From contig CAVRET010000002.1 in NCBI GenBank assembly GCA_963720265.1, positions 328,704 through 392,703 of the forward strand: a DNA stretch of 64,000 nucleotides. Reading direction: 5' to 3'. Position numbers and translations under genes: made by a program. This DNA is from an uncultured bacterium (GTDB taxonomy: Bacteria > Patescibacteriota > Saccharimonadia > UBA4664). Of the stretch, positions 42,788 to 45,140 are shown piece by piece. The notes below the pieces were generated by a model, which was not told the DNA's origin, searched no databases, and saw nothing but the letters and a program-made list of their open reading frames with translations. Within the stretch, counting starts at the first letter, position 1, and each line of letters begins with the position of its first letter.

Positions 42788-42803
42788 CTCTAAAATAATT
42801 CCG

Positions 42804-43337
42804 CTAATTCCGTGATTGGGGACGAAGGGCAAGCCGCACCTTCGCCCCCAATCGGATTAACACATCGGTCGCGGGTTCATCAGTTTCGGTATCACCAGCC
42901 GCGCGACGCAGAAATTCAGTTGCGTGCGCGATGCTGCGCAGGCCCCTCCACAGCCCCCGGTCGGCCCGCACATATTCCTTCCGAAAACCCTCAAGGATCC
43001 AGGCTGGTAGGTCGATGAAGATGCCGCGAGCCCTCATTACTTGGGCGAGGCTGGAGAGCTCGCTGTTGATCCGGTCGACCGCGCTCTGGTCTTGCTTCAC
43101 TAGATTGGCGAGCCGTTGCCAGATCTCGTCTCGCTGTCCGATCCCCCAGTCAACGAACATAACCACGAGCACAGCGGCCCGCAACCTAACGCCGTCGTCC
43201 GGAGGGTTATCGAAGATACGCTTCAACTCCTTCAAGATAAACGTCAGCCCGTCCTGATCGCTCAATATCTCTTGAGCGCGTTCGGAGACACCCCGGGTCT
43301 CAATGTTCGGTTCCGGCACAAACCCTCCACATGTCAA
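42804..43337 (-). CDS. Orphan hypothetical protein encoded antisense inside the atp operon (R-x6-H HEPN-like motif 'RGLRSIAH'); TTG start
   Basis: 177-aa ORF with ordinary composition on opposite strand between atpG and atpD. Confidence 0.35.
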   Translation of the reverse strand: MTCGGFVPEPNIETRGVSERAQEILSDQDGLTFILKELKRIFDNPPDDGVRLRAAVLVVMFVDWGIGQRDEIWQRLANLVKQDQSAVDRINSELSSLAQVMRARGIFIDLPAWILEGFRKEYVRADRGLWRGLRSIAHATEFLRRAAGDTETDEPATDVLIRLGAKVRLALRPQSRN

Positions 43338-43366
43338 TCGGCGCCTGCCGAGCCGCTAGATATAAC

Positions 43367-43389
43367 GTCTGTTATATCAGATAACAGAC
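43367..43389. promoter_or_regulatory. Perfect 9-5-9 palindrome GTCTGTTAT-ATCAG-ATAACAGAC 30 bp upstream of the antisense ORF start
   Basis: Read directly from sequence. Confidence 0.4.
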
Positions 43390-43685
43390 TGTCACGGCAA
43401 CGACGCCCGCCAGTTACATTCTTCCGGCCGTACCGCTCGCCCACAGTGCAGGCATGGTCGGCGCGGTAACTTCCTGCGAGCAGATGGCCGAAACCGAGGC
43501 CACGGAGGCAGCCATGTTCCGTCGGTTGCCCTGAGGTAGACTCCGCTGTACCAACCCCGGCCCTGGCGCTTGACGCGCCTGGCCGGATCTGCCCCGAGTT
43601 TTGAATCTTGCTTTCTCGAATCTCAAGGTAGGCCCAAACGCTTTATCGTGTAGAATATAAACATTAGCGCTAAAGCGTACGAGGA

Positions 43686-45140
43686 ATGGCAGCAACCGAA
43701 GCAAAATCTGTAAACCCGGCACCAACGTCGAGCGTCCAAGCTCCGACCGCTCCGTCAGCGCCACAGGCTGCCGCTGCAGTCGCGCCAAAACCGGCCGCCG
43801 CGCCAAAAGTCGCAGCCACATCCAAAGCCGCCACCGGCATCACCGGCCGCATTATTGCGATTCGCGGCCTAATCGTGGAAGTCGCCTTCAGCGGCGACCG
43901 CCGCCCTCCGTTGCGCGAAGTCATGACGGTACCCGACCATCCAGAGGTCATGCTTGAGATCAATTCATATACCGAACACAGAAACGCCATTTGCATCAGC
44001 TTTGTCACCAGTCCGGTGGTACGCCGCGGCGCCGAAGTCATTTCTACCGGCAGCACCATTTCTGTGCCCACGGGCAAGCGTGCGCTCGGCCGCCTGTTCA
44101 ATGCCGTCGGCTTAACGGCCGACCACCTCGAAGACATCGGTCCCGACGCCCCGCGCCGCAGTATTTACACCAACGCCACCTCAACTCAGCAATTCAACAA
44201 CAAAGACGAACTGCTCGAAACCGGCATCAAAGTGCTCGATTTCTTCACCCCGTTCGTTAAAGGCCGCAAAATCGGTATTATCGGCGGCGCCGGTGTTGGC
44301 AAGACCGTGCTCATCATGGAAATCATCAATAACATCGGCCAAGATCCGTCCAAACTTGCGTTCTTCGCCGGCATCGGCGAGCGCATCCGCGAGGGCCACG
44401 AGCTCTACGAAACGCTTAAAGCCGCCGACATGTTAAAGGCCACCGCTATGTTCTACGGCCAAATGAACGAAAACCCGGCCATGCGCGCCATGATCGGCCT
44501 CTCCGCCACCACGCTCGCCGAATACTTCCGCGACGAGGAAAAGCGCGACATCCTGTTCTTCGTCGACAACGTCTACCGCCACATCCAGGCCGGCAACGAG
44601 CTGTCGACCATGATGGGCCAAATCCCCTCAGAGGGCGGCTACCAAGCGACCATCTTCTCCGACCTCAAGCGTTTCCAAGACCGCCTCTACTCTAACGCCA
44701 ACGGCTCTATTACCGCGGTCCAGACCATCTTCGTGCCCGCCGACGACCTCACCGACCCGGCCGTACAAGAAATTAGCTCGCAAATCGACTCCGTCATCGT
44801 GCTCTCCCGCCAAGTCGCAGAAATGGGCATCCGCCCCGCCGTCGACCTCATCCGTACGAGCAGCTCGCTCGTGACCCCCGAAATCGTTGGCGAGCGTCAC
44901 TATCTGCTTGTCACCCAGGTTCAATCCATTATGCAAAAATACGACTCGCTCAAAAACATCATCGCCATCATTGGTGAAAATGAGCTCTCGCCCCAGGACC
45001 GCGCCGATTACCAAAAGGCCAAGAAGCTCATCGACTTCTTCTCGCAGTCGTTCCATGTCACCGAAAAGCTCAACGGCATCCCCGGCGTCTACTTCAATCG
45101 CGAGCAAACTCTCTCCGGCGTCGAAGAGATCTTAATCTAG
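43686..45140 (+). CDS. atpD: F1 ATP synthase subunit beta
   Basis: '[18 protein letters not shown]' P-loop, 'DELSEED'-region equivalent, full-length collinearity with beta. Confidence 0.9.

Follow-up and report, generated by a model that had tools for sequence, protein, structure and literature searches.

The F1 part of the ATP synthase (atp) cluster in the Saccharimonadia (TM7, Patescibacteria) genome studied here, of which we analysed one stretch of 64 kb (the window), is broken between atpG and atpD, the genes of the gamma and beta subunits, by some 900 nt that carry an antisense open reading frame (hereafter the ORF) and a long spacer. Our comparison with related genomes suggests that this junction is a clade-wide gene-turnover slot, of the class without mobile-element genes, and we consider it probable that the region in the window is one occupant of such a lineage-wide slot inside the F1 part of the cluster. 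A sequence-only reading of the window had drawn attention to the antisense ORF, to the 348-nt spacer and to a palindrome with an overlapping dyad, all of which are present, and had taken them as the insertion of a selfish, defence-type or regulatory gene into an essential operon. The insertion itself is borne out by the synteny described below, and the variable slot that it belongs to is a more informative result than the orphan gene.

A variable slot between atpG and atpD

Thirty-two Saccharimonadia loci around AtpG homologues, taken from species representatives with flanks of 6 kb on either side, were compared with the window by mapping 17 window proteins onto them. The AtpG orthologues of these relatives are 45-85% identical to that of the window, the closest ones (73-85%) coming from Saccharimonadia metagenome-assembled genomes. 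The gene order g36100-g36639-RRM-g37790 (minus strand)-g38070-atpF-atpH-atpA-atpG-slot-atpD-atpC-slot-g45471-ABC ATPase-permease is collinear clade-wide, and the atpF, atpH, atpA and atpG genes are nearly always tightly joined, the sole exception being a 3-kb insert in one relative (L018). The seven outgroup loci, whose AtpG identity is 45-52%, all show an overlap of 1-4 nt between the stop of atpG and the start of atpD, an arrangement that would correspond to classic translational coupling. Within the window's clade the two genes lie 1-83 nt apart in 11 genomes, several close relatives showing gaps of only 1-33 nt, and 301-2448 nt apart in nine (the window, L001, L002, L010, L011, L012, L016, L017 and L026); two further loci (L006 and L018) extend for at least 5.7 kb after atpG without reaching atpD. 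Because the outgroups overlap and part of the clade is near-contiguous at this point, the ancestral state is a contiguous atpG-atpD pair, into which the window has received an insertion, as had been proposed from its sequence. Insert-bearing and insert-free genomes interleave on a neighbour-joining tree of AtpG and AtpA, which suggests repeated gains or losses of inserts.

The DNA found at this point differs widely among genomes. At least eight unrelated cargo sets occupy the atpG-atpD interval in 11 of the 22 clade genomes, always between conserved flanks: a PfkB sugar kinase in a 1.3-kb insert (L001), a histidine phosphatase of the His_Phos_1 family (L002), an antisense GtrA-family membrane protein (L010), a DUF4238 protein together with a 252-aa protein (L011), a 267-aa homologue of the latter followed by a 106-aa protein (L012), an NTPase_I-T (ITPase; L017), a 383-aa membrane protein (L026) and an AAA_5 ATPase with a VWA protein and a protein of ~130 aa (L006 and L018). 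The 301-nt slot of L016 holds nothing recognisable and no ORF. All-against-all BLASTP of the cargo linked only L011 with L012, L003 with L012, L006 with L018 and L018 with L026, and the atpG-atpD cargo of the clade loci includes neither an integrase nor a transposase.

Further irregularities were observed in the same loci. The AAA_5 (MoxR/dynein-like)-VWA/CobT-like-~130-aa module lies at 2987-7837 of L006 and at 6911-11943 of L018 in copies that are ~31-38% identical, and it may represent a conserved accessory system. The 3-kb insert of L018 (3017-6001) makes the only broken atpA-atpG junction among the loci and encodes two antisense proteins, one of 405 aa in which HTH_17 domains (excisionase/MerR-type) are repeated and one of 476 aa. 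Inserts between atpD and atpC occur in L001, L003 and L012, the last two sharing an 87%-identical protein there, and the interval from atpC to the g45471 homologue forms a second variable slot with 0.6-2.6 kb of extra DNA in at least 10 genomes, which include L001, L002, L010, L014-L017, L019 and L026. In L011 (4458-6001) the atpA alignment stops at residue 256 and continues in a separate ORF of 236 aa, so that the complete-genome record CP064960.1 may contain a frameshift, a pseudogene or an assembly error there.

A conserved element upstream of atpD

Directly upstream of atpD a TG-TAnnAT element followed by ..ATAAGCATT occurs whether an insert is present or not. The clade alignment shows TG-TAnnAT and then ..A(T/C)AA(G/C)CATT, with the ATG 13 nt after the hexamer in many genomes; the insert-free L005 reads TGCTAAAATAACAATAAGCATTatg, the insert-bearing L001 reads TGTAGAATAACAATAAGCATTatg and the window reads CGTGTAGAATATAAACATTAGCGC...GAGGAatg, in which GAGGA directly precedes the ATG at 43686, the only in-frame start of its atpD. 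A -10-like hexamer TAnnnT (GATAAT in three cases) with an upstream TG was found 3-36 nt before atpD in 18 of the 20 ingroup loci. The outgroups generally lack this motif and rely on the gene overlap and a Shine-Dalgarno sequence. The element is also the only part of the insert region that the window shares with its relatives (95.7% identity over 23 nt, in L002).

A position weight matrix built from the clade atpD sites and applied with a threshold of 12 bits scored 23-37 bits at the atpD starts of 12 of the 15 scanned atpD-carrying clade loci, 11 of these 12 being training sites, and stayed below threshold in the window, L002 and L026, where the motif spacing differs. Apart from these starts, the matrix recurrently finds sites in one place only, ahead of g38070 where the cluster begins (12-22 bits); there the window carries TGCTATAATCATAAGCAC at 38412 with the related motif TGCTATAATCATAAGCA. 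Boxes of the -10 kind also stand 6-9 nt before the starts at 4248, 15045, 16184, 31036, 55372 and 58134. Several genes combine such a box, of the TAnAAT type, with the lack of a Shine-Dalgarno sequence (stretches 4230-4247, 15029-15044, 16165-16183, 31020-31035, 55355-55371 and 58992-59010), which suggests that this genome commonly produces leaderless mRNAs. Since -10 boxes sit so close to other starts, promoters that lack a -35 and have a short leader, or no leader at all, would be the local norm.

It thus seems probable that atpD and atpC form a transcription unit of their own throughout the clade, independently of any insertion. The sequence-only reading had likewise assigned them a promoter of their own, as something that the insertion implied; conservation of the motif in insert-free genomes points to the reverse order, the promoter probably being a precondition of the insertion and not its consequence. 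We propose that in this clade the atpD-atpC pair gained a -35-less TG/TAnnAT promoter with a short leader directly upstream of atpD, and that the upstream unit g38070-atpF-atpH-atpA-atpG ends at atpG, its final gene. With such a promoter, new DNA would find neutral ground anywhere between it and the atpG stop and would leave the expression of the ATP synthase undisturbed, and different genomes could therefore have acquired, and probably also shed, unrelated accessory genes in the slot. The sequence that follows the atpG stop in the window (CTCTAAAATAAT...) was considered as a relic atpD promoter and rejected; it scores below the matrix threshold, and the direct repeat beside it lacks significance.

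Anatomy of the inserted cassette

The features of the locus are collected in Table 1. The Pfam assignments of the atp genes are unambiguous, and the atpG start overlaps the atpA stop. For the ORF we prefer the GTG start, which is also that of its database copy (P0001); a Shine-Dalgarno sequence, GGAGGG, lies at 43323-43328, 3 nt upstream of it. Read in antisense to the atp genes, the cassette would comprise a candidate promoter within the 23-nt palindrome, which is also a possible operator, then the Shine-Dalgarno sequence and GTG start of an orphan protein predicted to be all-alpha and cytoplasmic, and at its end a strong hairpin shared with the convergent atpG, where both transcripts would probably terminate.

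Table 1. Coordinates of the features at the atpG-atpD junction (positions in the window)
Feature	Position	Strand	Remarks
atpA	40353-41930	+	local gene order
atpG (F1 gamma)	41927-42787	+	Pfam ATP-synt PF00231, 3.5e-30
ORF, GTG start	42804-43319	-	171 aa
ORF, TTG start (alternative)	42804-43337	-	177 aa
Hairpin GATTGGGGACGAAGG-N10-CCTTCGCCCCCAATC	42814-42853		inverted repeat I2, 15-nt arms, 93% complementary
Spacer between ORF and atpD			348 nt from the TTG start, 366 nt from the GTG start
Dyad TATAAC-GTCT-GTTATA	43361-43376		overlaps the palindrome
Palindrome GTCTGTTAT-ATCAG-ATAACAGAC	43367-43389		inverted repeat, 9+9 perfect
GC-rich remainder of the spacer	43390-43648		~260 nt, up to 67% GC
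atpD-proximal motif TG-TAGAAT-ATAAACATTAGCGC	43649-43671	+	candidate internal promoter and leader of atpDC
atpD (F1 beta)	43686-45140	+	Pfam ATP-synt_ab, 1.5e-64
atpC (epsilon)	45151-45408	+	85 aa, Pfam PF02823, 1.8e-13; 10 nt after atpD

A perfect 9-nt inverted repeat with a loop of 3-10 nt appears in just 0.86% of shuffled spacer sequences (p ~0.009), and the palindrome would fold into a hairpin of ~-18 kcal/mol (z ~-4). On the minus strand its loop and one of its arms yield TGATATAAC (43379 to 43371), an extended -10-like element that is ~50 nt upstream of the start codon of the ORF, the order on that strand being ...GTGACA-GTCTGTTAT-CTGAT-ATAACAGAC-GTTATATCTAGCGG...(~25 nt)...TGTGGAGGGTTT-GTG. 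Promoters under the control of a repressor classically have a dyad overlapping the -10 element, and the palindrome is thus a candidate promoter/operator of the ORF. No further copy of it was found in the window, its pattern had no match in a scan of viral sequences, and the 21 metagenome matches to the pattern were discarded, as they fall on unrelated AT-rich contigs and look like chance.

The hairpin at 42814-42853, which the earlier reading did not mention, starts 27 nt beyond the atpG stop, within the final codons of the ORF on the opposite strand, and is strong on both strands (-34.6 kcal/mol on the plus and -38.3 kcal/mol on the minus strand; z -3.9 and -4.1). Comparable hairpins lie close to the ends of other genes in the window, e.g. 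at 37738 and 63483, and because these adjoin gene ends, the hairpin may well terminate transcription in both directions, from atpG and from the ORF convergent with it. Its interpretation as a dispersed element resembling repetitive extragenic palindromes was rejected, the hairpin being unique in the window and in the fetched loci. A tandem 9-nt repeat, TAATTCCGC/TAATTCCGT (D14, 42796-42812), directly follows the atpG stop and spans the stop codon of the ORF.

The GC-rich remainder of the spacer is most likely non-functional remnant DNA. Rfam (E<=1) gave no match in the spacer, but only a chance rpfG match inside atpD; the folding of the spacer was not significant (z -1.2 and -0.6), and six-frame translation returned no plausible protein; with a tRNA scan that was negative as well, we discarded a structured RNA. 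A remnant of the cargo of relatives was discarded too, both for the spacer and for the ORF, given that blastn, tblastx and tblastn were negative except for the 23-nt atpD motif. Within the remainder lies an imperfect GC-rich hairpin, CCGGCCCTGGCGC-TTGAC-GCGCCTGGCCGG (43556-43590), followed by the T-rich GAGTTTTGAATCTTGCTTTCTCG; the two could be what is left of the terminator of a plus-strand cargo gene that has since been lost.

Nature of the ORF and alternative explanations

The sequence-only reading had called the ORF an orphan, and this description holds. Its sole match among ~15 billion proteins is itself: a word-indexed search of 5.8 billion clusters returned the self-match only, and an exhaustive HMMER search of 1.84 billion representatives added two giant repeat proteins (P0002 and P0003), which were rejected as homologues, their scores being one weak match of 33-38 aa summed many times. 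Pfam (E<=1) gave only a sub-threshold MEDS match (0.024; 14.9 bits against a cutoff of 29.8), and PADLOC (E<=10), NCBIfam (E<=10), PHROGs and PDB gave nothing relevant. Searches by tblastn of phages and plasmids returned no match or a chance recB at E ~0.3, and a scan of viral contigs returned no match. The ORF matches none of the inserts of relatives in nucleotide or translated searches or in the all-against-all comparison of cargo proteins, and none of the relatives carries it at the same place.

We nonetheless regard the ORF as a likely protein-coding gene, with coding support that is moderate. It is the sole credible reading frame within the 900-nt insert; its GC content at codon positions 1/2/3 (0.65/0.44/0.68) matches that of real genes (0.61/0.44/0.67 in 43 long ORFs of the window), and its log-likelihood per codon (0.12-0.145) exceeds that of shadow ORFs (-0.08+-0.16) by more than one standard deviation, the frames overlapping it having negative scores. 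Together with the Shine-Dalgarno sequence ahead of the GTG, the non-random palindrome with its -10-like element upstream and the strong hairpin at the 3' end, these features argue against the view that the ORF is not a gene and that the whole 900 nt are a decaying or non-coding leftover of cargo turnover in which the frame is fortuitous. We hold that view to be unlikely, if far from negligible: it can appeal to the complete lack of homologues, to a codon score under the gene mean (0.23+-0.10), to the frequency (4.6%) at which an ORF of at least 171 codons arises in random sequences of 898 nt with equal composition, to a single-sequence AlphaFold2 model of eight helices whose pLDDT of 39.6 makes it unusable for fold comparison, and to the junk that persists in the slot elsewhere, such as the 301 nt of L016 and the probably functionless GC-rich stretch of the window itself. 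The chance that a chimeric join in the assembly placed foreign DNA between atpG and atpD is, on the other hand, next to nil. The genome is probably metagenome-derived and the insert has no relatives, but a separate Logan assembly (ERR11523669) shows the same arrangement with 100% identity over 4311 nt, spanning atpA, atpG, the ORF and atpD; moreover, the base composition of the insert runs on from the flanks without a break, and the same junction carries inserts in other genomes too.

As to what the ORF encodes, the R-x6-H motif that the earlier reading called reminiscent of HEPN RNases is present, but a HEPN identity is not supported. The motif (R131-H138, RGLRSIAH) falls within a predicted helix, and the ORF resembles HEPN RNases and toxins in being small and predicted all-alpha; however, the protein has 21 Arg and a single His, which the motif uses, and the motif is at chance level, an Rx4-6H motif being found in 31% of shuffled ORF sequences. 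In contrast to these RNases, the ORF has no profile match (many HEPN families being included in Pfam), no cognate partner such as an MNT antitoxin and no confident structure. That the ORF is a HEPN-type RNase, a toxin or another defence or selfish gene that invaded the operon is accordingly very unlikely, even though a strain-specific gene in a variable slot is a frequent setting of defence genes. No adjacent partner gene or PADLOC match indicates a toxin-antitoxin or defence architecture around it, Pfam detects no transposase, integrase or recombinase domain in the insert, no phage, plasmid or viral relatives were found, and the cargo of relatives consists chiefly of metabolic or membrane genes. 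Flanking or terminal repeats are likewise lacking, the boundary repeats of the insert being weak (D5, 15 nt at 73%, of which ~0.4 would be expected by chance in a rough binomial estimate), and a tRNA scan of the whole window placed no tRNA in or beside the insert. A 36-aa minus-strand ORF upstream of the gene (43334-43444), considered as an antitoxin, spans the palindrome, is Arg-rich and found no support. Somewhat less remote, yet still improbable, is the idea that the ORF encodes a DNA-binding regulator acting on the palindrome and modulating atpDC or atpG through convergent or antisense transcription or through occupancy of the spacer. The perfect dyad with its overlapping second dyad, which lies over a candidate -10 and is typical of operators, would fit this idea, as would the position of the gene between both atp transcription units; but no helix-turn-helix or other DNA-binding family was detected, the palindrome is ~260 nt away from the atpD promoter motif and single-copy in the window, and the gene is missing from all relatives examined, so that it is not part of a conserved atp regulation. 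It is tempting to speculate further that the gamma-beta junction is a dedicated capture site, with cargo recruited beside the promoter motif by motif-directed or transformation-driven recombination, and that the orphan is functional, de novo or fast-evolving, and wired to ATP synthase transcription by convergent transcription and the palindromic operator; we give this proposal little chance.

Several points weigh against the explanation favoured here, namely a turnover slot opened by an independent atpDC promoter and presently occupied by a real gene. The case for that promoter comes solely from conservation, and a simple two-hexamer sigma-70 scan found none, because the atpD element has no -35; the link between the promoter and a permissive slot is a correlation across 27 loci. 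The relatives are metagenome-assembled genomes, and some gaps could be mis-assemblies, but nine independent cases make misassembly unlikely as an overall explanation. For the ORF, the codon score is about one standard deviation under that of typical genes, length alone gives p ~0.05, AlphaFold2 yields no confident fold, and it has no homologue on which purifying selection could be judged. The hairpin that would terminate it lacks a clear U-tract. With these points considered, our best guess for the product is a dispensable, strain-specific accessory protein, possibly regulating its own expression through the palindrome.

Other observations on the cluster and the window

AtpD carries a 61-aa N-terminal extension of low complexity, rich in Ala and Pro (43686-43868); among relatives (L001-L026) the length of this extension varies between 13 and 96 aa, and only the closest subclade of the window has a long one. 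AtpA ends in a tail of ~45 aa rich in Ala, Pro and Gly (...APTAPAPAPGANPPGAGASPGPTQTQGGLPAAQPSAPAPAAEAKK; 41790-41930), which looks poorly conserved because tblastn aligns the relatives only as far as about residue 480, and which recalls the regulatory C-terminal extension of the alpha subunit in mycobacterial ATP synthase. The epsilon subunit consists of the N-terminal beta-sandwich domain PF02823 only, with no C-terminal helical (inhibitory) domain. A crude tblastn search with E. coli and Bacillus queries found no gene for the a or c subunit in the window or in the fetched loci of relatives.

Directly upstream of atpF, a gene of ~280 codons (38445-39287) is conserved in all relatives; its product matches no Pfam family, starts with a signal-peptide-like segment and ends in a two-helix hairpin, and the possibility that its C-terminus is a fused c-subunit was dismissed after a negative Pfam search at E<=10. 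ARAGORN called a tRNA-Ile with the anticodon TAT at 60049-60124 on the minus strand. Such a tRNA is uncommon in bacteria, in which AUA is usually read by a CAT tRNA modified with lysidine.

Significance and relation to known systems

The comparison indicates that the coupling between neighbouring subunit genes, normally a translational one, can be lost even in an essential enzyme, and that the junction thus opened can then become a landing pad where accessory genes settle, in bacteria that are ultra-small and depend on a host. For the annotation of genomes of Saccharimonadia and of the candidate phyla radiation (CPR), the atpG-atpD and post-atpC intervals are places where strain-specific genes may be expected, and TG-TAnnAT...ATAAGCATT may prove of use, as a candidate promoter, in the genetics now being developed for these bacteria; Saccharibacteria have already been manipulated by natural transformation. 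No functional lead comes from the orphan protein at present. Our literature searches returned no description of atp-cluster insertions in Saccharibacteria; the orphan gene in its slot is, nonetheless, a further example of known phenomena, i.e. gene-turnover hotspots, orphan genes of the CPR and split atp clusters.

Chromosomal hotspots of gene turnover between core genes, one class of which is devoid of mobile-element genes, were described by Oliveira, Touchon, Cury and Rocha (2017; PMC5635113). Like these hotspots, the atpG-atpD junction is a core interval with unrelated accessory genes, rapid turnover and no recognisable mobile-element genes, and one core interval with many accessory families is what we find when the hotspot criterion is applied by description and not by the formal statistical threshold of that work. 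The junction differs from them in that its flanks are adjacent, normally translationally coupled subunits of one essential complex, and the comparison extends over species-level metagenome-assembled genomes and not over strains of one species. As an orphan, the ORF resembles those of Patescibacteria/CPR in encoding a short, family-less hypothetical protein in a reduced genome (~1.1 Mb); most of the latter have relatives within the phylum, whereas the ORF has none in the searched collections.

Finally, cyanobacteria and plastids possess split atp clusters, in which atp1 ends with the gamma subunit and beta and epsilon form a separate operon, an organization that Cozens and Walker reportedly described for cyanobacteria in 1987. 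The break between gamma and beta and the candidate transcription unit for beta and epsilon are common to that organization and to the one considered here. In cyanobacteria the two units are far apart, whereas in the clade of the window the two putative units stay side by side and point the same way, with 0-2.4 kb or more of variable cargo between them and a putative promoter at the head of atpD.

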